Of a stretch of DNA of 45,542 nucleotides, positions 2,785 to 26,435 are shown one piece after another. A model generated the notes under the pieces. It was not told the origin of the DNA. It saw nothing but the letters and a program-made list of their open reading frames with translations, and ran no database searches. Position 1 is the first letter of the stretch. Each line of letters begins with the position of its first letter. This DNA comes from Candidatus Micrarchaeia archaeon (GTDB lineage Archaea; Micrarchaeota; Micrarchaeia; Micrarchaeales; CABMGC01), in contig JBMFTS010000002.1 of the NCBI GenBank assembly GCA_049966915.1, positions 1 through 45,542 on the forward strand, in the 5' to 3' direction. The position numbers and the translations under genes are program-made.

Positions 2785-3510
2785 TTACTTTCCGAACCTT
2801 CTCTGCCTTCTTGCATATTCCGCTATCGCGTTCGATAGATCCTGCTTTGTAAAATCGGGCCAAAGCTTGCTTGAAAAGTAGAGTTCGGAATAGGCTACCT
2901 GCCACGGCATAAAGCCCGAAAGCCTCTCCTCGCCAGACGTCCTTATTACCAGGTCTATGTCAGGCACTTTTGAAGAGAGCAGGAACTGTCTTAGTGCATT
3001 CTGGTTTATCCTGCGCGCATCGGCGCCGTATTTCGCTGCCATTGCCTTTGCCGCATGCAGAATATCGTCCCGGCCTCCGTATGCTATTAGCAGGTTTATG
3101 ACCCTGTCCTTGTAGTGCCTTGTTTCTTCTTCCACCTGCTTCATTGTGTTTTGCAACGTTTTCGGCAAGTGTTCTATGTTGCCTATAAGCTCCAGCCTCG
3201 TCCTGTTTTTGTGCAGCCTGTTTACCGTGTTCCTGTCGGAGAACACCTGCTGGTAAAGCGAGAACAGCGTCTGCCTTTCCATCAACGTTCTTTTGAAGTT
3301 TTCTGTGGAGAACGCCCACACGACTATGTTTTTAACGCCGTAGCTTTTGCACCATTCGGCGAAATCTATGAACTTCTGCACGCCCAGGCTGTACGCCTGC
3401 GCGAACCCGAGCTTGTGCTTGCGCGCCCACCTTCTGTTGCCATCCGGAATTAAGCCTATGACATATGGAATAGGCATCAAATCTCTACCTTTTATGCAGT
3501 TTATGCACAC
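2785..3510 (-). CDS. uppS: Undecaprenyl/polyprenyl diphosphate synthase (cis-prenyltransferase)
   Basis: IPDGNRRWARKH, VWAFSTENFKR, LIRTSGEERLSGFMPWQ and EYARRQRRFGK are canonical UppS motifs. The true start is probably Met12 (3477), giving MPIPYVIGLIPDGNRRW. Confidence 0.92.
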   Translation of the reverse strand: MCINCIKGRDLMPIPYVIGLIPDGNRRWARKHKLGFAQAYSLGVQKFIDFAEWCKSYGVKNIVVWAFSTENFKRTLMERQTLFSLYQQVFSDRNTVNRLHKNRTRLELIGNIEHLPKTLQNTMKQVEEETRHYKDRVINLLIAYGGRDDILHAAKAMAAKYGADARRINQNALRQFLLSSKVPDIDLVIRTSGEERLSGFMPWQVAYSELYFSSKLWPDFTKQDLSNAIAEYARRQRRFGK

Positions 3511-3514
3511 AATA

Positions 3515-3527
3515 TATTTAAATGTTG
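3515..3527 (+). promoter_or_regulatory. TATA-like box tatttaaatgttg, copy 1 (distal rRNA promoter or divergent uppS promoter)
   Basis: An exact 13-nt copy of the box at 3608-3620. AT-rich TTTAAA core typical of archaeal TATA boxes. It lies between uppS and the 23S gene. Confidence 0.3.
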
Positions 3528-3607
3528 ATTTGCTTCGTGTGCCGAAGGATTTGTTTTCGCTTCGATGAACGAAAAATGCATGCGAACTGCTCCGAATTAC
3601 AGCAACC

Positions 3608-3620
3608 TATTTAAATGTTG
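3608..3620 (+). promoter_or_regulatory. TATA-like box tatttaaatgttg, copy 2 (candidate 23S rRNA promoter)
   Basis: Identical 13-mer 93 nt downstream of copy 1. It sits about 150 nt upstream of the 5' processing-stem arm. Confidence 0.4.
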
Positions 3621-3770
3621 TTGCGCAAATATACTTGGTGCTTTTATGTCAGCACTGGGCTTGTAAAGGACTTATTTGAGAGCAAGCTCTGTTTTTGCTT
3701 TATGAAAATAAGTGGCTTAGCATAGCCGACCTTTCTGGCCTGTATGAGATTGCGCAAGCAATTGATTTGA

Positions 3771-3786
3771 TCGGGAGCAAACAAAG
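3771..3786 (+). repeat. 5' arm of the rRNA processing stem (tcgggagcaaacaaag)
   Basis: Perfect 16-nt reverse complement of 6621-6636. The two arms bracket the 23S rRNA, as expected for an archaeal processing helix. Confidence 0.8.
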
Positions 3787-3797
3787 ACACTAACATA

Positions 3798-6615
3798 TTT
3801 TTTAAGCCACCTAGGGGATGGCTTGGCTCTGGCCGCTGCTAAGGCCGTGGCAAGCTGCGAAAAGCTCGGGGTAGCCGCATGTCAGGCTTTGAACCCGAGA
3901 TTGCCGAATTGCACTATGCATAATGGTGCATGCAGACGCGGGGAACTGAAGCATCTTAGTACCCGCAGGAGAAGAAACCAATGGGATAGCGCGAGTAACG
4001 GCGAGTGAAAGCGCTGCAGGGCGTGCAGAATCCTTGTGCGCAAGTGCAAGGAGATGTTGCGCAGTAGTTACGTGTTTGCGAGCCGAAGGCTTTGGAAAAA
4101 GCCGCCAAAGAGAGTGACAGTCTCGTAGGCGAAGCAAGCGCGCAATAGCTGCAAAACGAGTAGCGTAGCTCGAGTATGCTATGCGAATATGGGGCGTTAA
4201 ACTCCAACCCTAAATATTGGCCAGAGACCGATAGGGAACAAGTACCGCGAGGGAAAGCTGAAAAGAACCCACACGTGTGGGAGTGAAAAGATCTGAAACT
4301 AGGTGGTTACAAGAAGGTGAGGGCGTGAGCTTTGAAACGCGCAGAAGCTAAGCTTCGTGAGAGGCTGGCGCAGCGCGCGGAGCAGCGTTCCATCATTCTT
4401 CTCGAAGCAAGAGCCAGGGAGTGTATCAGGAGTGGCGAGCGCATAGCGCAGCGAAAGCGAAGCCCTTTCGGGCGGGTGCGAAAGCGCCTTAGTCACTCTT
4501 TTACGACCCGAAGCCATTGTGAACTACGCGCGACCAGGGCGAAGTCGAGTTGATGCTCGATGGAGGCCCGCAACCTGTCATGGCGTGTCCTGTTGGGTGA
4601 GTCGCGGGTAGGGGCGATAGACCGTTCGAACATGGCAATAACGGGTCCCCTTCGAAGTATCTTTAGGATAGCCTCCATTCAGCTTGCACATACGGTAGAG
4701 CTACTGATTAGACTGCCGGAAGCGAAAGCTTCCGCTTTCTAGTCAAACTCCGAATGCATGTGCTGCTTAGATGGGGAGTCGGCGGCGTTGGGTAAGCTAG
4801 CGCCACGAGACTGGAATGACAGTGACAGAGGTTAAGGTCCCCAAATCCTAGTTAAGTGTGTTGAAGGAAGACGGCGTCGTAGACAGTCGGGAGGTAGGCT
4901 CAGAAGCAGCCATCCTTCAAAAAACGCGTAACAGCGTACCGATTGAGACGTTGTTTTCTTAAGATGGACGGGGCTAAACTAGGTACCGATACCCCTGCGT
5001 CCGCAAGGACGAGTAGGAGGGCATGCTGCATTGCAAGAAGCGCTTTCGTGAGGAGGCGTGGACAATGCAGTAGAGAAAATCCTGGTGTTAGTAACAGCAA
5101 ATAAAGGTAAGAATCCTTTACGCCTGAAGCACACGGTTTTCCTCGCAACAATCGTTGGCGGGGAGTTAGCCGTTCCTAAGCAGGGAGCCAATCACTACCC
5201 TGCAAAAGGGAAGCATGTTAATATTCATGCGCCAGGCACGTAGGTGTGGCAACACAAGGCAGATTCTTGACGCTTGGGGATAGGCCGCTTGCAACGTGCA
5301 AGTGGCTGCGGAGTCTCATTATGAGGAGAAGCAGCTAAATGAACTTCGGCTGAATTCCTGAGCCCGTGAAAAGGGAATCTGCAACGATCGTGCTTGAACG
5401 TACCTAGAACCAGTACAGGTGCTGCTGGCTGAAAAGGCCAAGGCGTGTCGGGATTAAATCAGGTTAGGGAACTCGGCAAGTTAGTGGCATACGGTAACAA
5501 TAAGCCATGTCTGCGCTCTGCAAGCGCAGATTGCAATAACAAAGGGGAGGCGACTGTTTCTTTAAAACACAACTCACCGCTAAGCAGTAATGCTTTGTAC
5601 AGTGGGTGACGCCTGCTCACCGCTAGTACGCGAAACCCCGAAAGGGGATAAACGCTAGCAAAGAGCGGGGGTAACTCTGACCCTCTTAAGGTAGCGTAAT
5701 ACCTCGTCGCTTAATAGGCGACCTGCATGAAGGGCGTAACGACTCCCCCAATGTCCCAACCTGGTGCCCGGTGAACTCACTGCGTGGTGTACATGCCACG
5801 TACCCTCAGTGGGAAACGAAGTCTCTATGAAACTTGACTACAGTCTGTTGTTGTCATGTTGCAGTGGTTGCATAGCGTAAGTGGGAGCGTCGAAGCATGC
5901 CCTTCGGGGCATGTGGAGCGACAATGTAACACCACTCTTCCTCTGCGGCGTGACTTACCGAAAAGGAACAGCGACAGATGGGTAGTTAGATTGGGCGGTT
6001 GCTTTCGATAAGGAAACGAAAGTGACCAATGCTCTGCTTAAGTGGGTTGGAAACCCACTGTTAAGCTTAAAGGCAAATGCAGGGCTGACTGTACCTCGAA
6101 GAGCGGGAGGTGCAGACTCGAAAGAGGGGCTTACCGAGCGTTGGAAGCTCTTTTAGCGGGGCTCCAACCTGTCAGAAAAGTTACTCTAGAGGTAACCGGT
6201 TCGTGGCTGGTGAGAGTTCACATCGACCCAGCCGTTTGATACACCGATATGGGCTTAGGTCATCCTGGTGGTGCAGGAGCCGCCAAGGGTCAGGCTGCTC
6301 GCCTGTCAAAGACCTACATGAGCTGAGTTAAGTCCGCCGCGAGGCAGGACGGTAGTATCTACTGAGGGTGTTAGTGTCAGAGGATAAGGCACCCCTAGTA
6401 CGAGAGGAATGGGGTACCGGCGCCTCCGGTTTAGCGGTTGTGAATGCATGGCCGCGTAGCTGCGCGCTAAGGAATAAGCCCTGAAAGCATCTAAGGGCGA
6501 AGTCCAATCCGAAACGAGACACTTAGGGTGGTCGTATTACATGACTCGATAGGGCGGCTGTGTAAGCCGGGAGCGCAAGCGACCGGTAAGCAGACCGCTA
6601 CTAAACCCTAAAAGT
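3798..6615 (+). rRNA. rrl: 23S (LSU) ribosomal RNA, ends approximate (+/- 20 nt)
   Basis: Conserved LSU blocks on the plus strand. These include ggatggcttggctc...ggggaactgaagcatcttagtacccgcaggagaagaaa near the 5' end. Also present are aaggtagcgtaatacctcgtcgcttaataggcgacctgcatgaagggcgtaacga (about 5690) and the sarcin-ricin loop agtacgagaggaa (about 6400). Every ORF-track entry inside this span is spurious. Confidence 0.95.
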
Positions 6616-18998: not shown

Positions 18999-19069
18999 CG
19001 CTCCTTGCTCTGGTTTTGTTTGCATAGCTTGGCCTTGCGTGGTTTGGCCAATGGACTAGGCTCAATGGA

Positions 19070-21409
19070 CTAGACTATAAGTCCGCTCAAGTCTTCTATG
19101 CTGACAAGCTTTACGTGGCCGTATTGTATTGCCACTTTTAACACCTCAGCGGTTTCTGTGAACGCGCTGTAAAGCTTTTTAGAAAATTCCGAGAGCGCTT
19201 CGTTGCTGACAAATACTATGAATATGTTGTCGTTTGCGTCTATTTCGAACCGCCTCATACCACTTTTCCTGGAGTAGATTATCACCTTTGCCTGCCTGCC
19301 TTTTTTCGTTATGAGCATGTCTGCACTAGGTTCTGCGTTGAGCTCCGTGAAGAGCACAGCGTGTTCCACGCAGTAGTCCCTGAGAGCCCTAAACACCACA
19401 AGGTATTCTATGTCGTGTTTGGAAATCGAAATCCATTGGGCGAGCGCGTAATAGCCCGATTCTTCGATTATTGCGCCTGACTTGGTCAATGTGTCAAGAA
19501 TAAGTTGCGCATTCTGCGTTGTAATTGATACTGGCACGTTGTTGTAGCGTATGTAGCTTGCTATGCCGTTCTTGAATTCTTCGAGCGTGAGTGGCATGAA
19601 ATTCCAGTGATAATAATAGTTGACTTTTTCAAAAACCCCGAGCATGTCTTCCGGCTTTGTTTTTATCACTTCCCTTTTTTCAGGGAGAAACGTGGGCACG
19701 TCTATATAATATTCGTCGCGGTTTGGAGGTTTTAGAACAAGGTTGAGGAGCAATACCGCAAGCAGCACTACGCCGACTTCTATGTAAAACGCGGGTATGT
19801 GCATTATTTCCTTTGAATAAGTAGTGGTGTAGTTTATTCTCTGACCGAATACGTCTATGCTGAACTGCTGCTTGCCATAGCTTATTATGGTGCCCTTCGG
19901 CAAATCATACTCCATTACGCCTGAAGAAATAGGCACTATCTCGCCGTATGCTTTGTCAAAACTTACCTGCGCCTTTGCGCTTACCGGAAACGTGCCGCTA
20001 TAAACGTCAAATTCGAATGTGCCGTTCTTGAAATTCAAATTCACCGGTGTTATGTTGAGTGTTGGCACTGAGAATAGGGCAGCCGTGTAGTTTTCGTTAT
20101 ACTGGTTTCTTAAAATCGCAATATAAGTGCCGGTCGGCAGCGAAAAGCTGTGTGTGAGCACTATTTGTACGCTGCCTAAAAACGTGTGGAGAATACTTAC
20201 GGAAGTGACATAGCTCATGTTTGTGTCTAATATGTCTATGTGAAGCTGTGATTGCGTGCTGACGCTGCTGTTTATGCCAATGGAAACGTTTTGCGTATCG
20301 CTTATTACGCTTGGCATCGACATTGTGCCATGCAGCACGTACTTTGATCTGAAAGGCGCAAGCACGTATTCGAAAGCCGAGGCGTTGCCAACGCCAAGCC
20401 TCAGCAGCGAGTATGTGCTGTTCAGTGCGGAAATCTCAGCAGTATTATTGGGCATGGGGATGCGCTGCAGGTTCGTGTATATGCCTATTGCGCCAGTGCC
20501 GTTTGACACGTTTTCTATGCCATATGCAAGCCTGTCAAGCCAGAAATCGGCGCTTATGCTAGAAGCCAAGCTGTACGCCTGCACGCTTGCGTTGGGCCAG
20601 GCAACATTGGGATAGTTTGAAAATGCTATAATGGTGCCATTGTGCACGTTAATGTATGAAATGCCGCCATACCGGTTGCCTGCACTAAAAAAGAACGTGG
20701 GCTGTTTGAAGGAAGAATTGAGCTTTGCTTCCTCGCTTGCATTCATCACCGAATACGCAGGCATTGTCGATATGCCATATGCCGCAAGTTCCGATGTGAC
20801 ATTTTGCGGAGTGACAAATATTACGCCGCTTGTGCCTATCGCTTTGCTGAAGTTGCGGCCTACGTATATCACGGTGTCGCCGTTGTCAAGCAGCTTGAAA
20901 ATGCTTATTGACTGGTTCTCAAGCAGCGGCAAGGGCATAAGACCAGAAGCTATTATCACTATGGAGTTGTTTATGTGTTGCAGGTCCTGCATTGGCACGT
21001 ATGAAAAGCTTGAAGAGTTGATCAAAAGGCCGAACGCGCTGAGTTCCCTGCTTAGGTTTTCATAAACCGCAAGCCCGTCGAACGCGTCTATGGAATACCT
21101 GCTCGTGTTTACCAAATAGATGCGTTTTATGGGATTTTGGGCATAAACCGCAAGCGATATGTTGGCCGTCGTCACGTTTATTGCAGAGTAGTTTGCAAGG
21201 GCGTAGTCCACCAATTGCATGCCGTTTTCATAATCGAAAAAAGAGCTCTCGACCTCGCTTATCGCTGCGCGCATGGGCGCCTGCTTTATCGCAGGCGCGG
21301 CCTGTATTTTTTTGAGCGCAGCCGCGGACATGCTTGCTATCGCAAAAACAAGCAGCAGAACGACAACTACCAGTGCGGCCCCTATTATTATGAATTTTTT
21401 GCCTCGCAT
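19070..21409 (-). CDS. Bitopic surface glycoprotein: signal/anchor, ectodomain of about 520 aa, TM helix, cytoplasmic domain of about 220 aa
   Basis: N-terminal helix FIIIGAALVVVVLLLVFAIA. I counted about 26 N-x-S/T sequons in the ectodomain. Second TM is FYIEVGVVLLAVLLLNLVL (about 19733-19800). The cytoplasmic tail (19073-19732) includes a winged-helix-like stretch, LILDTLTKSGAIIEESGYYAL. Confidence 0.75.
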   Translation of the reverse strand: MRGKKFIIIGAALVVVVLLLVFAIASMSAAALKKIQAAPAIKQAPMRAAISEVESSFFDYENGMQLVDYALANYSAINVTTANISLAVYAQNPIKRIYLVNTSRYSIDAFDGLAVYENLSRELSAFGLLINSSSFSYVPMQDLQHINNSIVIIASGLMPLPLLENQSISIFKLLDNGDTVIYVGRNFSKAIGTSGVIFVTPQNVTSELAAYGISTMPAYSVMNASEEAKLNSSFKQPTFFFSAGNRYGGISYINVHNGTIIAFSNYPNVAWPNASVQAYSLASSISADFWLDRLAYGIENVSNGTGAIGIYTNLQRIPMPNNTAEISALNSTYSLLRLGVGNASAFEYVLAPFRSKYVLHGTMSMPSVISDTQNVSIGINSSVSTQSQLHIDILDTNMSYVTSVSILHTFLGSVQIVLTHSFSLPTGTYIAILRNQYNENYTAALFSVPTLNITPVNLNFKNGTFEFDVYSGTFPVSAKAQVSFDKAYGEIVPISSGVMEYDLPKGTIISYGKQQFSIDVFGQRINYTTTYSKEIMHIPAFYIEVGVVLLAVLLLNLVLKPPNRDEYYIDVPTFLPEKREVIKTKPEDMLGVFEKVNYYYHWNFMPLTLEEFKNGIASYIRYNNVPVSITTQNAQLILDTLTKSGAIIEESGYYALAQWISISKHDIEYLVVFRALRDYCVEHAVLFTELNAEPSADMLITKKGRQAKVIIYSRKSGMRRFEIDANDNIFIVFVSNEALSEFSKKLYSAFTETAEVLKVAIQYGHVKLVSIEDLSGLIV

Positions 21410-21410
21410 A

Positions 21411-21566
21411 CTACAAACTACCCGCTTCCCCTTTTTTGGCCACTAGCCTGTTGACTAAATTTTCAAACGCCTTGGAAAGTTTGTTCTCGCTTCCGCCAAT
21501 GCGCTTGACAATCCTGTAAACCTTTATGTAGCTGTATTTTTTGTTTATTGTAACCGCGTATATCAT
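21411..21566 (-). CDS. Candidate 51-aa basic protein (below the ORF-track size cut-off)
   Basis: Manual translation: MIYAVTINKKYSYIKVYRIVKRIGGSENKLSKAFENLVNRLVAKKGEAGSL. Its TAG stop is 1 nt from the ATG of the 779-aa gene (TAGTATG). It fills an otherwise empty 169-nt gap. Confidence 0.4.
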   Translation of the reverse strand: MIYAVTINKKYSYIKVYRIVKRIGGSENKLSKAFENLVNRLVAKKGEAGSL

Positions 21567-21578
21567 TCAACCGCCTGA

Positions 21579-22310
21579 CTATCCTTTTAGTTCCAGGTAG
21601 CCTAGGCTTACCATCTTGTCAAGTATCTGCTCCACCCTGGGCTCGGGTATCTTGTACGTTTTTGAAAATTCTCCTATGTCTATCGTGCTGTCGTGCACTT
21701 CAAGCCAATCCTGCACCATCGCCATTAGCGCTTCGTCCGAATATGTTTGCAGGGCGTTGAGCTGTTCCTGCAGTTTCTTGTTTTCCTCGCTCAGTTGCGA
21801 AGCCTGTATGGTCAGGTTGTGGTTCGATACTGTGAGCTCGCTCGCAAGTTTTCTCAGTTCGGCGTATTCCGCCAATAACGCGTCGTACTTGTTGAAAAGC
21901 GAACTGTAGTTTTCGTTGAGCCCGTCGAGCAATTCCGTTATTGACGAATCCACATATTGGAAGAACTTCTGCTGGTCCACCCTGAAATCGTCGGCTATCA
22001 CGGCAAGCATTCCTGCCACATTTTTGATTACAGTAGCACGGCGCATCCTCTCGCTAGTATTCGGCACTATCGAATAGGTGAGAAATACGCCGTCTTTTCT
22101 CAGCTTGACAATGTAAAACAGAAAAGGCTCCTTCCTAACATTCCTGCTTTCTACGTGCACTACATCTAGTTCGTCTGCGCTCTGGGTTATGGAATAGAAC
22201 GGGATCTGTGCGAGTTTTGCGCGTATAGCGTCAAAGCTGCTTACCACTGACCCCGGAAATTGCACCTCTTCGACTTTCGGTTCAGGTATTTCTTCTTCGG
22301 CCACTCTCAA
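21579..22310 (-). CDS. Cytoplasmic coiled-coil protein with a C-terminal winged-helix-like domain
   Basis: TTG start preceded by GGAGG. The central heptad-rich segment is NKYDALLAEYAELRKLASELTVSNHNLTIQASQLSEENKKLQEQLNALQ. C-terminus is IGEFSKTYKIPEPRVEQILDKMVSLGYLE. Confidence 0.65.
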   Translation of the reverse strand: MRVAEEEIPEPKVEEVQFPGSVVSSFDAIRAKLAQIPFYSITQSADELDVVHVESRNVRKEPFLFYIVKLRKDGVFLTYSIVPNTSERMRRATVIKNVAGMLAVIADDFRVDQQKFFQYVDSSITELLDGLNENYSSLFNKYDALLAEYAELRKLASELTVSNHNLTIQASQLSEENKKLQEQLNALQTYSDEALMAMVQDWLEVHDSTIDIGEFSKTYKIPEPRVEQILDKMVSLGYLELKG

Positions 22311-22504
22311 GCATCCTCCGGACGTGCATTCGCAGCAATGCGAGCACGTAGTTTATGACATTAGGGGCTTACGCACTTATAAATCTTTTTGCGTATCTGC
22401 AGCGTTAAAGACGGCAAGTCTGTTTATTGCAATAAAGTCGTTTCCGTGCGTGTGCGCCGAAGTGCTTGCATGCAAGCGCGTTGCACTGTCGCGGCTGCGC
22501 GCAA

Positions 22505-22897
22505 TCAGCGTTTGCCAGTGTGCCTACTTTGCGCCGTTGCCGCGTTTTCCTGTTTGGGCATCTTAAGCTTGGGCGTGTAACTGAGCAACGAAAACGCGTA
22601 AAGCAGCGCAGTTACGAGTATGCCTACTCCGAGCGCGTAAAGCTTGTCCGATGCCACGAACAGCGAGAACAGCGTGAAAATAATACCCAGTGCAAGGTAG
22701 AGTTTTTCCCTGCCTTCATATTTTTTGCGCATAATTGCGTATTTCGGGTAGCACTCTTTGCAAACGACCAATCTGTTTCCTTGTTCGTTCTTTGTAACGT
22801 TCCTTTTGAACCATCTTATTGTGTTTATGACCCAGTCCTGCTCTACTTCTATACCCTGCTTTTCCTCGCCGCAGACTATGCAAATGCTCTTTGCCAT
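22505..22897 (-). CDS. Zn-ribbon protein with a C-terminal 2-TM hairpin
   Basis: CIVCGEEK...VCKECYPKY (CxxC...CxxC), followed by LYLALGIIFTLFSLFVA and ALGVGILVTALLYAFSLL. The ATG shares one nucleotide with the upstream TAA (TAATG). Confidence 0.65.
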   Translation of the reverse strand: MAKSICIVCGEEKQGIEVEQDWVINTIRWFKRNVTKNEQGNRLVVCKECYPKYAIMRKKYEGREKLYLALGIIFTLFSLFVASDKLYALGVGILVTALLYAFSLLSYTPKLKMPKQENAATAQSRHTGKR

Positions 22898-23196
22898 TAT
22901 GATCCCAGCTCAAGCTCTACGAGCTTTCCGTATTCTTTCTTTATCTTTTCTTCGTCGAGCATGTTCATGACGTTGGTTATTGTCACGTCGTCTATTCCCA
23001 AGCGTCTTAGCACGTTCACTACTTGCTCGGTCTTCAGCCCGGATTTTTCTAGAAGCCCGGCAAATGACACTGCGTTTACGTGCCTGTGCTGCTTGTTGAG
23101 CTCGCCGAGCAGTTCCTGCACTGTTTTTTCGCTCACTCCTATGAGCGTAAGCATGCGCTGGAGCTTCTGTCGCGACACAGTGAATGTGGCTCCCAT
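22897..23196 (-). CDS. Small soluble protein, a paralog of the C-terminal tail of the adjacent ATPase
   Basis: Start taken at Met14 (MGATFTVSRQ...), which removes the overlap with the ATPase gene. The segments MLTLIGVSEKTVQELLGELNKQH and LLEKSGLKTEQVVNVLRRLGIDDVTITNV align with ATPase residues about 435-498. Confidence 0.6.
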   Translation of the reverse strand: MGATFTVSRQKLQRMLTLIGVSEKTVQELLGELNKQHRHVNAVSFAGLLEKSGLKTEQVVNVLRRLGIDDVTITNVMNMLDEEKIKKEYGKLVELELGS

Positions 23197-23218
23197 ATTG
23201 TTTACCTTGTTTGCATTG

Positions 23219-24724
23219 TCAAGTAACGTACACAAATGCCCTTGTTATTACCGAATCGGGCAGGCCTATCGCCCTGAGAAAGCCGACTATTGCTTCCTTG
23301 CTTACCTGCTTGCCCAAAAGCAGCTGCACGAGGCTTCTTACGTCGGCAAGCCTGCCTTTTGCGTCCAGCTGTTTGAAAACGTCCTCTATGATTTCAGACC
23401 CGACGTTGTTTTCTATCAGCTTTGCGCTTATGTCCGCCTTTTCAAGGAAGTATTCCTTTTGCACGGTTTCGTCGGCGAGCTCGCTCTGGCTCAGTATGTC
23501 TGCAACGTTTATTGTATATACGTCTAGCGGCACCTCTCCAACAACCCTGTCGAGCAGAAATATTTCTGGAAACTCCACATTGGTTTGAAATGACATGTCG
23601 ACTGCCGCCTGGCCCACTCCGAACTTGCTTATTTCGCGCCTCATAAACTCGGAAAAATTGAGCGAGCCCTGCAGATAATCGAGGAAGCGCTCGAATCTTA
23701 TTCTTAAGATTATGTTAGTGCCAACGTTTGAAAATATTGCTTCGTTTATGTCAGTGGGGTTTTGCGATGCCACGATAAGGCCAAACTGGTATTTGCGGCC
23801 TTCCCTTATTATCGTCACCGCGTCGCTTCGCTCGTCGCTTGCTATCTTCCATGCTTCGTCGAGCACGACAAGCGCCTTGAGTCCTTTGGTGGCAGACCAG
23901 CCCTCCATTCGCATTTTTTCTTTAAGCGTTTGCAATATGAACAATGCAGCAAGCGCCCTAAAGCGCTCGTCAGGCAGGCCGGAAAGGTCTATGTCCACGA
24001 GGCCTGAGCTAGAGAGCTTGCCAAGGTCTATTGTGCTCTTTCTTGCGAAATAGTCCTCGCCCTCCCTTGCAAACTGCCTGAGCCTGTATACCGCGTTTTC
24101 TAGTTCGGCCGGATACTCGTAAGTGCCTCCCTGCAGCTGCTCCTCAAGAAGCGATATCACCTCCTTGAGCGTTGGCGCCTCTTTGCCCACTTGCGGCGTT
24201 TCTGCCAGGTTGAAGCCCGCATTCACGTATGCCTGCTCTAAAGCCTCTTCGGTAAGCCTCTTCTGTTCTGGATAGTCGCTTATGTCGGTAAGTATCTCCA
24301 GAGAAGTAAGTATCTGCTTGGCGCGGTCGAGCGGTTTCATGCCAGAAAGGTCCATTATGTTGAGATAGTCCCCTTTGCCCAGAGAGACTATCGTGCCGCC
24401 GCTCTGCTTTACCCACGCTTTGTATTCGCCGGCCCAGTCTATTATTATTGCGTTGGTATTCCAGATGAAGCTGGCCCTCGCGAGGAAAGTCTTGACGAAG
24501 AAGCTCTTGCCTGCGCCGGTTATGCCAACTACTGCTATGTGCGGATTTGTAAGGTTTGAAAAGGTCCATGTGAAAGGCACGCTGAAAAGCTTTGTTATGC
24601 CTATGAATATGGAATTGGTCGGATCGTTAAGCAAATAGTCCGCAGGCGGCTCTGGAGGCCTGCTCAATATAGTCCTTTTGCCGAGCTCGTTGCTCATTAT
24701 GTTTTGCAAGCGTAAAAGGCCCAT
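23219..24724 (-). CDS. VirB4/HerA-like (FtsK-HerA superfamily, DUF87-type) P-loop ATPase
   Basis: Walker A GITGAGKS (24503-24526). Walker B VVLDEAWK (23855-23869 covers VVLDE). Also REGRKYQFGLIVASQNPTDI, typical of HerA/VirB4/TraC-like translocases. At 501 aa, with the P-loop at residue about 70, it lacks a long VirB4-type N-domain. Confidence 0.8.
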   Translation of the reverse strand: MGLLRLQNIMSNELGKRTILSRPPEPPADYLLNDPTNSIFIGITKLFSVPFTWTFSNLTNPHIAVVGITGAGKSFFVKTFLARASFIWNTNAIIIDWAGEYKAWVKQSGGTIVSLGKGDYLNIMDLSGMKPLDRAKQILTSLEILTDISDYPEQKRLTEEALEQAYVNAGFNLAETPQVGKEAPTLKEVISLLEEQLQGGTYEYPAELENAVYRLRQFAREGEDYFARKSTIDLGKLSSSGLVDIDLSGLPDERFRALAALFILQTLKEKMRMEGWSATKGLKALVVLDEAWKIASDERSDAVTIIREGRKYQFGLIVASQNPTDINEAIFSNVGTNIILRIRFERFLDYLQGSLNFSEFMRREISKFGVGQAAVDMSFQTNVEFPEIFLLDRVVGEVPLDVYTINVADILSQSELADETVQKEYFLEKADISAKLIENNVGSEIIEDVFKQLDAKGRLADVRSLVQLLLGKQVSKEAIVGFLRAIGLPDSVITRAFVYVT

Positions 24725-24767
24725 GCTAATACATTTTTCACTAATTTATTTAATAGTGCTGTTGGCG

Positions 24768-25592
24768 CTATTTCTGCACTGAAAATTCAAGCTCGAGCTC
24801 CTGCTCGCCTGGCAGCGCGTAATTGAACTGAAACAGCGAGTAAAGCTCCCTGCCAACGACGCGAGTTATGCTGAGGTCGAACCCGCCGAATACCGTTTGC
24901 AAGTGGTCGAGCTGCGAAGACAGGCTGTCAAGTGCCTCCTTTTCGCTCACGCCCACGGCCGTGCTTTCTATGTACATTAGCGCATTTATCGGCCTTTCGC
25001 CGCTGGAGAGCCTATCTATTCGAGTTTGTATTATGTTTATTCGCCTCTGCAAGTCCTCTATTGTGAGTTGGCTTGGCGTAGTTGAACTCATTTCCCTTGA
25101 CAGCTGGAATTCAAGCGCGCCCCTTCTCGCTTCAAGCTCGTCCCTGTACTTTTGCAGGTCTTCGGCAAAGCAGACAATGTCATACTTGAAAGGAAACGTT
25201 ATGTTTTGCACTATGCGCTCCCAGTTGTTGGGGCCCTCTGCAAGCAGCGTTTCTTCGCCTTCCTGTATCTGCTCTACAGTGAACACGTAGTTGTATATGT
25301 TGGCAGTGAGGTAGCCTGTGGCATAGTACACGCCGTTTACGTATTTTATTATTGCGTTGTTGGCCTTTGGTATGTAGTAGTCTTTTGCGGGTATTTGCTT
25401 TATGTTTAAAATTGTGGTAAAAAGCGGGAACAGCAGAAAATCAGCGTAATTTATTATGAAAAATGCCAGTATGGCAAGTATTGCAAGGACTGCCACGATT
25501 ATGGCCGCTGAGCCGTACGCTGCCGACGCCATTGCAACAAGTATCGCTATTATCGAGCATGTTGCTAAATAAAATATGGTATTGGCGTCCAT
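24768..25592 (-). CDS. 2-TM membrane protein with a ~200-aa soluble domain (paralog of 25593-26435)
   Basis: Two N-terminal helices, then a soluble domain with a coiled-coil-like stretch (YRDELEARRGALEFQLSRE). By eye it aligns with the upstream gene: NYADFLLFPLF vs YYAYLFAPLL, NNAIIKYVNGVYYATGY vs GNAIVTKRGSEFYVSAF, and VGVSEKEAL vs SGASEEEAT. Confidence 0.7.
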   Translation of the reverse strand: MDANTIFYLATCSIIAILVAMASAAYGSAAIIVAVLAILAILAFFIINYADFLLFPLFTTILNIKQIPAKDYYIPKANNAIIKYVNGVYYATGYLTANIYNYVFTVEQIQEGEETLLAEGPNNWERIVQNITFPFKYDIVCFAEDLQKYRDELEARRGALEFQLSREMSSTTPSQLTIEDLQRRINIIQTRIDRLSSGERPINALMYIESTAVGVSEKEALDSLSSQLDHLQTVFGGFDLSITRVVGRELYSLFQFNYALPGEQELELEFSVQK

Positions 25593-26435
25593 TTACACAC
25601 CCAAAGACGCTACTTTTTCCTGCATTTGCTCGCTTATAGTCGCAAACGGTATCATCTCGTCAGGCTCCAGCGCGCTAAGAAATTCCTTTGATTCCATTAT
25701 GTACGCGCTTACGCCCAGCGTGGCACTGACTCCGGCAGCAAGTTCATCGGCTTTTTGCATGGCTATTGTCGTGGCTTCCTCTTCAGAAGCCCCGCTTGCA
25801 GTAACCATGGCAAGCGTGCTCATTGCATTGGATCTTACCCTGCTTACAGAGTCGAGCAGGTTTCTCCACATAGTCACTTCGCCCTTGGCTCTCTCAAGAT
25901 CAGGGTTTGCCTGCGCCGGATTTGCCTGGTTATTCAGAGTAGCATAGCGCGCTTCGGCGTCATTGAGCTTGTTGCGTATCTCGCTTATGTACTCGTCCTT
26001 GTTTATTACATAGAGCATGGTCGTGAATTTTACGGGCTCTTTGCTCACCGTAAGGACTTTTGAAAATGCCCTGGCGAATTCCACGCGTTCGTCCTCGGTC
26101 ATTTCGGTAGCGGACTTATAGATTGGTATTTTTACAAACGCGCTTACATAAAACTCGCTGCCGCGCTTTGTTACTATGGCATTGCCGTTTGGGGAAATTC
26201 TAAATGCAGAATCTTCGCTAAGCACAAGCGTTTTGTTTTTTGCATGCAGCAGCGGCGCAAACAGATACGCGTAGTATTTTGTCGAAAATGCCACGACGTC
26301 AAACAGCAGTGCAAGCACGGCAAACACTGCTCTTACATATGCCGGCAAAGTCAAAAAGTATACTAGCAGCACAAAGGTGAAAGATACGAGCACAAGCGCG
26401 AAAAAGATGCTCCTGCTTGAGAGTGTCATTTGCAC
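25593..26435 (-). CDS. 2-TM membrane protein with a ~200-aa soluble domain (paralog of 24768-25592)
   Basis: GTG start at 26435, or ATG at 26429. Its stop TAA directly abuts the ATG of the next gene. Same architecture as the downstream paralog. Confidence 0.7.
   Translation of the reverse strand: MQMTLSSRSIFFALVLVSFTFVLLVYFLTLPAYVRAVFAVLALLFDVVAFSTKYYAYLFAPLLHAKNKTLVLSEDSAFRISPNGNAIVTKRGSEFYVSAFVKIPIYKSATEMTEDERVEFARAFSKVLTVSKEPVKFTTMLYVINKDEYISEIRNKLNDAEARYATLNNQANPAQANPDLERAKGEVTMWRNLLDSVSRVRSNAMSTLAMVTASGASEEEATTIAMQKADELAAGVSATLGVSAYIMESKEFLSALEPDEMIPFATISEQMQEKVASLGV

Follow-up and report, generated by a model that had tools for sequence, protein, structure and literature searches.

The stretch of DNA considered here ('the window') spans 45,542 nucleotides (nt), namely positions 1 to 45,542 of the forward strand of contig JBMFTS010000002.1 from the assembly GCA_049966915.1 of a Candidatus Micrarchaeia archaeon. 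Its minus strand carries, at positions 19070-21409, an uninterrupted open reading frame (ORF) for a protein of 779 amino acids (aa), which we name g779 and which is the last gene of a cluster formed around a VirB4/CedB/HerA-like ATPase. This cluster is apparently undescribed in the literature on Mia14 genes, on VirB4 and type IV secretion in Micrarchaeota, and on HerA of DPANN archaea. New here are the domain anatomy of g779 and its corrected membrane topology, the fusion of g779 in other families with its small upstream neighbour orf51, the sub-module which the two form with cc243, a coiled-coil protein, and findings that speak against DNA binding or catalysis by the cytoplasmic tail. The features of g779 and orf51, all on the minus strand, are as follows.

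21411..21566 (-): orf51, very basic protein of 51 aa (synteny, homology to fused N-terminal extensions)
19070..21409 (-): g779, two-pass membrane glycoprotein (ORF and family searches; glycosylation predicted from sequons)
21311..21403 (-): first transmembrane (TM) helix, TM1, a signal anchor, residues 3-33, with MRGKK before the helix and a cytoplasmic N-terminus (hydropathy, AlphaFold2 helix, fused forms)
20540..21271 (-): membrane-distal head, residues 47-290, a 4-stranded β unit plus an α/β domain (AlphaFold2, confidence score pLDDT >90)
19817..20533 (-): three tandem β-sandwich domains, immunoglobulin (Ig)/macroglobulin (MG)-like, forming the membrane-proximal stalk, residues ~293-531 (AlphaFold2, Foldseek)
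19736..19792 (-): second transmembrane helix, TM2, residues 540-558 (hydropathy, AlphaFold2, conservation)
19691..19732 (-): juxtamembrane cytoplasmic motif KPPNRDEYYIDVPT (conservation; low confidence in AlphaFold2)
19442..19654 (-): winged-helix domain, residues 586-656, neutral to acidic (AlphaFold2, Foldseek, isoelectric point)
19073..19441 (-): α/β domain, residues 657-779, of probable restriction-endonuclease-like (PD-(D/E)xK) fold (Foldseek, column counts)

g779 has no match in Pfam, NCBIfam or PHROGs, Pfam applied to all 41 of its aligned homologues likewise gives none, and searches of Protein Data Bank (PDB) sequences with g779 as a single sequence and with two profiles returned nothing significant; matches in the PDB to Csx28 and baseplate entries (E 0.04-0.4) were judged to be noise. 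The domain anatomy rests on an AlphaFold2 (AF2) model of full-length g779, built from the 41-sequence alignment with a mean pLDDT (predicted local distance difference test) of 88.8, in which a helix (residues 3-33), the head (47-290), the β-sandwiches (~293-531), a second helix (540-558), a linker (559-575) and a folded tail follow one another. Comparison of the whole model with the PDB using Foldseek yields MG domains of C3, CD109 and A2M as well as Ig domains of CD22 and LAG-3 (E ~1e-7), which, for a predicted structure, is the generic signal of tandem β-sandwiches. The head has no sequence match in either the PDB or Pfam. The initial annotation had described an ectodomain with no recognisable repeats, and this stands at the level of sequence, where hhalign detects none among the ectodomain domains, but not at the level of the predicted structure with its three β-sandwiches in tandem.

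Exactly 26 N-x(not P)-S/T sequons, in agreement with the earlier estimate of about 26, are present in g779, and all of them are located in the ectodomain within residues 73-526. For that region 7.1 ± 2.3 are expected by chance, with 26 or more being reached in 0 of 2000 shuffles, and the last 219 aa (residues 561-779) contain no sequon at all. This asymmetry is a trait of the family, since each of the 41 homologues has 16-28 sequons ahead of the second helix but 0-3 beyond it. About 15 other large ORFs (≥250 aa) of the genome are equally dense, with 4-6 sequons per 100 aa (median 0.39), so that dense sequons mark this region of g779 as extracellular, but do not set g779 apart within its genome. 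Examples of such ORFs are C12:2936-4573, C7:21574-22653, C3:3-3068, C10:13155-15203 and C27:1768-3759, and one of the sequon-dense ORFs encodes a Cys-rich, β-helix-like protein of 1022 aa with 47 sequons; taken together, the ~15 ORFs can be used directly as a list of predicted surface glycoproteins.

The Pfam model for the oligosaccharyltransferase STT3 has no match in the source genome. A divergent STT3-like polytopic ORF is, however, found outside the window (contig C1:8769-11405), which shares 71% identity with a protein from the same genus that itself only just passes the STT3 cut-off; the ORF exhibits EPDD near its N-terminus and, where WWDYG is usual, LWPDG. An STT3 match of any strength is obtained for only about half of 31 relatives. 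Because this ORF is present, and because glycosylation of a Micrarchaeal surface layer (S-layer) has been demonstrated experimentally (bioRxiv 10.1101/2021.04.28.441871), glycosylation of g779, as predicted from its sequons, is plausible.

It had initially been proposed that g779 is a bitopic protein with a single TM helix at ~19733-19800. The position was correct (TM2 at nt 19736-19792) but the count was not, since g779 contains two hydrophobic segments, residues ~5-33 and ~540-559, with positive residues adjoining both helices on the cytoplasmic side. TM2 carries an invariant E544 at its outer end as well as a near-invariant N556. Of key importance for the role of TM1 is orf51, the stop codon of which is located 1 nt before the ATG of g779, and which immediately precedes g779 in ~74 of 84 loci, encoding a peptide with a mean isoelectric point (pI) of 10.3 and a net charge of +9. 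In 55 distant representatives of g779 (825-912 aa), an N-terminal extension of ~70 aa precedes the first helix. A profile of orf51 matches only residues ~11-47 of the long g779 forms, with none of the reversed-sequence controls matching, and hhalign aligns the orf51 family with the fused N-terminal extension over 26 columns (probability 87.7; E 3.4e-6). In the families f4, f9, f12 and f13, long g779 begins directly after cc243 with orf51 fused to its N-terminus, and no separate small ORF is located between cc243 and g779 in loci L091, L092, L093 and L095; family f7 possesses both a separate 64-aa ORF (orf51 match with E 4.5e-8) and an 806-aa g779.

Because orf51 is fused to the N-terminus of g779 in these distant families, sequence comparison identifies it as the cytoplasmic N-terminal peptide of g779 in detached form. 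The fusion places a cytoplasmic segment before TM1, which therefore is a signal anchor, and it is consistent with this assignment that the h-region exceeds 20 residues and that the split forms share no conserved cleavage site. A bitopic protein with a cleaved signal peptide was rejected on the same grounds, that is, because the fused forms put a cytoplasmic domain before TM1. In place of the bitopic architecture, the comparison points to an N-in/C-in two-pass hairpin with a ~505-aa extracellular loop, the N-terminal peptide being encoded by orf51 here and fused in other families. The outside-in arrangement envisaged in the initial annotation is borne out, with the C-terminal domain located on the sequon-free, cytoplasmic side of the membrane rather than outside the cell. 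In the split and fused orf51-g779 pair, gene fusion thus settles membrane topology and, at the same time, exposes a partner that annotation pipelines missed.

Conservation is highest in the cytoplasmic tail, with a mean column identity of 0.60-0.66 compared with 0.33-0.59 for the N-terminal helix and the ectodomain. Directly after TM2, the juxtamembrane stretch KPPNRDEYYIDVP is among the most conserved of the family, with P562, D565, Y567, Y568, I569 and D570 being invariant or near-invariant; the pattern D[ED]YYID[VI][PQ] was in fact used for retrieving relatives of g779. In the AF2 model, the DEYYIDVP motif lies in the low-confidence segment 559-575 and is predicted to be disordered (pLDDT <50). 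Because it is invariant and yet predicted to be unstructured, DEYYIDVP is a candidate for a linear docking motif.

When modelled alone from 79 sequences translated out of the fetched loci, the tail reaches a pLDDT of 90.6 and a predicted TM-score (pTM) of 0.84. Its first domain comprises helices 586-599, 609-619 and 631-643 followed by strands 647-650 and 653-656 (all with pLDDT >90), and the segment LILDTLTKSGAIIEESGYYAL, previously singled out as resembling a winged-helix recognition unit, indeed forms helix 3 and the β-hairpin wing of a winged-helix fold in this model. Foldseek matches support the assignment: IdeR, YceH, Nse1, APC2-WHB and IclR are retrieved with probabilities of 0.9-1.0, with IdeR, YceH, Nse1 and APC2-WHB reaching 0.97-1.0 and root-mean-square deviations (rmsd) of 3-5 Å over ~80 residues. 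Several of the closest matches are modules for protein-protein interaction, namely those of Nse1/MAGE, of APC2 and cullins (WHB), and of ESCRT-II. The pI of the winged helix averages 6.9 across the family and is 4.6 in g779, and the whole tail is net negative.

A cytoplasmic winged helix beneath an ectodomain might suggest that g779 is a membrane-tethered receptor or regulator, in which the ectodomain senses a ligand of the host or the environment and the winged helix controls either transcription or the ATPase; the conserved E544 and N556 of TM2 could then transmit the signal. The acidic to neutral character of the winged helix and its similarity to interaction-type domains do not favour this explanation, no match to the winged-helix regulator families (OmpR/ToxR, IclR, MarR and others) is found in Pfam or NCBIfam for any of the 41 members, and g779 has neither a proteolytic-release nor a kinase module. 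We therefore regard such a function as distinctly unlikely, and the signal-transducing role that had been considered for g779 is at most a possibility.

For the second domain of the tail, near-full-length Foldseek alignments of the tail are obtained only with VC1899 (1xmx; E 1.2e-3), FokI, and viral Mrr-like and VRR-NUC-like proteins. The scores are low (E 1.2e-3 to 4e-2; TM-score 0.2-0.3) and the order of secondary structure elements fits the α-β-β-β-α-β core of such nucleases, which makes a PD-(D/E)xK-like fold of residues 657-779 probable, not established. A viral structure library likewise returned weak winged-helix and nuclease-like matches for the tail and nothing more, and a search of the whole genome with a tail profile detected no paralogue. 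As in Mrr, FokI and VC1899, (i) a winged helix is followed by an α/β nuclease-like domain, here within a tail of 200 aa, (ii) an acidic pair is found at equivalent positions (E668 in 71/79 and D697 in 79/79 sequences), and (iii) Q706 (65/79) corresponds to the Gln of QxK variants. However, those enzymes are soluble, conserve the catalytic Lys and bind DNA through basic surfaces, whereas the tail of g779 is membrane-tethered, net acidic and devoid of a conserved Lys: at position 708, Lys, although found in the g779 of the window, is present in only 3 of 79 sequences, with Tyr (27), His (11), Asn (10) and Ser (8) being more frequent. This suggests that the nuclease-like domain is catalytically degenerate across the family, and that binding or cleavage of nucleic acids is not favoured.

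These data bear directly on the proposal that g779 is a nucleic-acid-handling subunit, the tail of which binds and cuts DNA or RNA moved across the membrane by the VirB4-like motor as a source of nucleotides. Apart from the nuclease-like architecture and the full E...D...QxK pattern of the window's g779, one may adduce that the best family matches of the ATPase are the DNA translocases CedD and CedB, that orf51 is strongly basic, and that other ultrasmall symbionts have been suggested to live on nucleic acids taken from their hosts (bioRxiv 10.64898/2026.06.21.733656). Given the non-basic winged helix, the net-negative tail, the Lys position and the low Foldseek scores, we consider this proposal unlikely. 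With a winged helix that lacks basic character, a net-negative tail, a Lys that is not conserved and several winged-helix matches of the interaction type, docking appears to be a likelier function of the tail than DNA binding or cleavage. Hence, of the nucleic-acid- or protein-binding role initially suggested for this domain, it is the latter part, i.e., protein docking, that is favoured.

The family is large and, as far as its members are annotated, confined to a single phylum. When 1.84 billion representative proteins were searched with a profile, 386 clusters matched at E ≤ 1e-3, 247 of them at E ≤ 1e-30; among the 150 clusters listed, most span the whole profile with 750-912 aa, and about a fifth are shorter partial sequences. 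The length of family members is conserved (754-912 aa). A relative of g779 is encoded in 178 species-representative genomes, and the best 80 of these 178 are Micrarchaeota except for three labelled 'Marsarchaeota', one labelled 'Saccharimonadales' and a few with the unclassified label 'archaeon'. The loci L023, L052, L055 and L063, labelled 'Marsarchaeota' or 'Saccharimonadales bacterium', contain a g779 orthologue together with the whole cluster and probably represent mis-binned or mislabelled Micrarchaeota. Apart from such probably mislabelled entries, every annotated match is from Micrarchaeota, to which the family is thus restricted. All named matches are 'hypothetical proteins', including Mia14_0743 of the cultivated Mancarchaeum acidiphilum, and profile searches of a collection of 5.8 billion proteins, started from the alignment and from the Mancarchaeum homologue, revealed no other locus tag of a cultivated strain. 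In a distant family, locus L099 (G031:C2) encodes at 2902-4641 a secreted protein of 579 aa which matches positions 470-693 only of the g779 profile (E 2.8e-13), that is, the last β-sandwich, TM2 and the winged helix; no ATPase cluster is nearby, and the sequence match suggests that this protein may be a partial paralogue of g779.

Within the phylum, g779 is present in 340 of 401 sampled genomes, in 167 of the 188 of high quality, and in 78 of 82 from the window's own family. It occurs as a single copy in the source genome and mostly so in the family. The gene is absent from families f10 (0/7), f15 (0/8), f17 (0/4) and f18 (0/4) and nearly so from f11 (1/21). The ATPase, present in 341 of the 401 genomes, is absent from the same families (f11, 3/21), and most of the incomplete f1 and f2 genomes that are devoid of either g779 or the ATPase are devoid of the other as well. 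In many genomes of distant families, two ATPase matches are found. The genes upstream of orf51, together with a promoter-like element, are located in the window as follows.

21579..22310 (-): cc243, coiled-coil protein of 243 aa with a winged-helix-like C-terminal end (synteny; coiled-coil matches only)
22376..22390 (-): BRE (B recognition element)/TATA-like element AAAAAGATTTATAAG in the 194-nt gap upstream of cc243 (sequence only)
22505-22897 (-): zn130 (fixed order in relatives)
22897-23235 (-): s112, protein of 112 aa (fixed order in relatives)
23219-24724 (-): VirB4/CedB/HerA-like ATPase (Pfam DUF87, AAA_10, TraG P-loop)
24768-25592 (-): m274, protein with two TM helices (fixed order in relatives)
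25593-26435 (-): m280, protein with two TM helices (fixed order in relatives)

The core module beyond cc243 thus spans 22505..26435 (-). NCBIfam matches of the ATPase to CedD, CedB and VirB4 are all below the cut-off (for CedD, 73 vs. 600 bits). The small protein s112 is homologous to the C-terminal ~80 residues of the ATPase itself (hhalign of the family alignments: probability 96.1, E 3e-9). To assess synteny, 84 loci were searched by tblastn with the proteins of the window, and five loci from the distant families f4, f7, f9, f12 and f13 were compared as well. The order m280-m274-ATPase-s112-zn130-cc243-orf51-g779, with g779 always last, is kept in essentially every one of the 84 loci with enough flanking sequence and in the five distant loci, and cc243 is located directly upstream of orf51/g779 in 80 of the 84 and in all five of the distant loci. 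In Mancarchaeum and in one other nearly complete genome, g779 ends a co-directional row beyond which unrelated genes follow; this row opens with polytopic paralogues, continues with two ~275-aa proteins with two TM helices and the DUF87/VirB4-like ATPase, and then comprises a ~100-aa protein, a ~130-aa Zn-ribbon/TM protein, the 243-aa coiled-coil protein, an ORF of 47-51 aa, and g779. At the other end of g779, a short direct repeat (TAGTCCATTG-AGCC-TAGTCCATTGG) is located at the stop codon, 19048-19072 (-), in a 71-nt convergent gap toward the gene of a CDP-archaeol synthase.

The last three genes hold together most tightly. Across the loci, the median gaps are 7 nt between cc243 and orf51 and 13 nt between orf51 and g779, and the loosest junction is that between zn130 and cc243 (median 39 nt vs. 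4-13 nt elsewhere; 194 nt in the window). In the window's lineage (L005-L008), the block of six paralogues is inverted and split off by Cas4-like, alaS and carS genes (cf. 7491-27653 in the window), and L007 and L008 additionally have an inverted ATPase block, with cc243 and g779 staying together as a separate, divergent unit. GGAGGA is found 4 nt before the TTG start codon of cc243.

Fixed gene order and matching presence and absence support the initially guessed membership of g779 in the ATPase module. They also speak against g779 being a generic, fast-evolving surface glycoprotein that is functionally unlinked to the ATPase genes, as could be argued from the many equally sequon-dense ORFs of the genome and from an ectodomain that diverges faster than the ATPase (30-68% vs. 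54-90% identity). For a near-universal, mostly single-copy protein of conserved length, which holds a fixed place at the cluster end across the class and has the presence/absence pattern of the ATPase, that explanation is very improbable.

Another possibility is that g779 represents a SlaB-like membrane stalk which anchors the Micrarchaeota S-layer and is located beside the ATPase cluster through co-regulation only. How the S-layer protein of Micrarchaeum harzensis is anchored is unexplained, and one proposal is a second stalk protein that contains a TM segment (bioRxiv 10.1101/2021.04.28.441871; PMC8975820). Moreover, the β-sandwich domains of g779 adjoin a TM helix and are rich in sequons, and the promoter-like element suggests that g779 may have its own promoter. 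Like SlaB, the S-layer stalk of Sulfolobales, g779 combines (predicted) glycosylation, β-sandwich domains and membrane anchorage with a projection into the pseudo-periplasm. However, SlaB has just one TM helix, at its C-terminus, as well as a long coiled coil, lacks a cytoplasmic domain, and is encoded with slaA and not with an ATPase cluster, whereas for an anchor the conserved 220-aa cytoplasmic domain of g779 with its invariant motif, as well as the N-terminal peptide, would be superfluous. The strict gene order with the ATPase and the loss of both from the same families are likewise hard to reconcile with an anchor. Finally, no known S-layer or adhesin family is matched by g779 in Pfam, NCBIfam or the PDB sequences, and Pfam S_layer_N (PF05123), to which similarity of the M. 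harzensis S-layer protein is reported in the literature, has no match in the source genome (91% complete), in g779 or in its homologues. We thus deem an S-layer anchor improbable; g779 as the S-layer protein itself was rejected, the published SLP_Mh being a different protein of 101 kDa.

An S-layer anchor, an active nucleic-acid subunit and a receptor or regulator are all less well supported than the reading which we favour, with slightly better than even confidence, namely that g779 spans the envelope as the surface-exposed subunit of a VirB4/CedB-like ATPase machine in most sampled Micrarchaeota. The protein inserts as a hairpin with both termini in the cytoplasm, and its ~505-aa loop projects outward as an α/β head on a stalk of three β-sandwiches, saturated with sequons. 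Such a loop would be positioned as an outer scaffold, an adhesin or a docking part toward the S-layer or the host cell, two of these roles having been among the initial guesses for g779. Inside the cell, three conserved elements may link g779 to cc243 and, directly or via cc243, to the ATPase: (i) the basic N-terminal peptide, which is orf51 here and fused elsewhere, (ii) the DEYYIDVP motif just after the second helix, and (iii) the neutral-to-acidic winged helix together with the catalytically degenerate nuclease-like domain.

Several points weigh against this assignment. Contact of g779 with cc243 or the ATPase is deduced from gene context and conservation, and no homology emerges when the tail is aligned by hhalign with cc243, s112, zn130 and the ATPase. 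No relative of g779 is found among the known parts of type IV secretion systems (T4SS), Ced and Ted in Pfam, NCBIfam and PHROGs, and no fold could be assigned to the head, with Foldseek of the whole model having found generic Ig/MG domains only. Furthermore, kin genomes are not independent, so that the shared presence and absence of g779 and the ATPase rests on a handful of family-level losses. Lastly, because of the promoter-like element and the looser zn130-cc243 junction, cc243, orf51 and g779 may constitute a semi-independent transcription unit with an internal promoter.

As for systems of related design, the SPEARE proteins of Nanohaloarchaeota (e.g., SVXNc_0300), in which an Ig-like ectodomain is combined with a TM helix and a cytoplasmic VirB4/TraG ATPase, are proposed to bind the host and to serve a type-IV-secretion-like system (PMC10266531). 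g779 is likewise a surface protein of a DPANN symbiont and likewise possesses a β-sandwich ectodomain, a membrane helix and a cytoplasmic part which, in the case of g779 presumably, is tied to a VirB4/TraG-type ATPase. However, SPEARE proteins are giant, with about 75 Ig-like domains, and include the ATPase domain in a single chain, whereas g779 comprises three β-sandwiches, an α/β head, two membrane helices and a tail in which a winged helix is joined to a nuclease-like fold, with its ATPase being encoded by a separate gene, four genes upstream. Sequence homology between g779 and SPEARE was not detected. By analogy, g779 is thus closest to SPEARE in working principle, not in family membership.

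With the DNA-import systems Ced of Sulfolobales and Ted of Thermoproteales and with the T4SS of monoderm bacteria, the cluster shares a chromosomal location, a VirB4/CedB-like ATPase at its center, small partners with two TM helices, and polytopic membrane proteins. In Patescibacteria, a chromosomal T4SS is essential for epibiotic growth, and monoderm T4SS make use of surface adhesins rather than outer-membrane channels (PMC12102498). In its working principle, g779 is reminiscent of such adhesin-dependent systems, too. Nonetheless, none of the components VirB1-11, VirD4, CedA/A1/A2/B/D, TedA-C and PrgB resembles g779, and adhesins of the PrgB type are wall-anchored and devoid of the cytoplasmic domain that g779 possesses.

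In the envelope of the cultivated Micrarchaeon ARM-1, cryo-tomography has revealed a ~21 nm barrel-like structure which serves as a docking platform for host-derived nanotubes (PMC11329633). It is tempting, if rather speculative, to consider that g779 might oligomerise via its stalk and head into this barrel, that the ATPase cluster might constitute an import machine for host macromolecules, and that the cytoplasmic parts of g779 might couple docking to the motor; we regard this as a long shot. If it were true, DEYYIDVP, the winged helix and orf51 would couple docking outside the cell to the motor inside. g779 also provides an experimental handle, that is, a target for antibodies or tags in tomograms, a candidate host-contact or docking protein, and a cytoplasmic motif and domain for interaction screens. 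Micrarchaeota and other DPANN archaea are devoid of most biosynthesis and live attached to hosts. The transfer of material from cell to cell is among the main questions of their biology, and g779 is the only large surface-exposed component of this motor-driven cluster, one that reaches both the outside of the cell and the cytoplasm.

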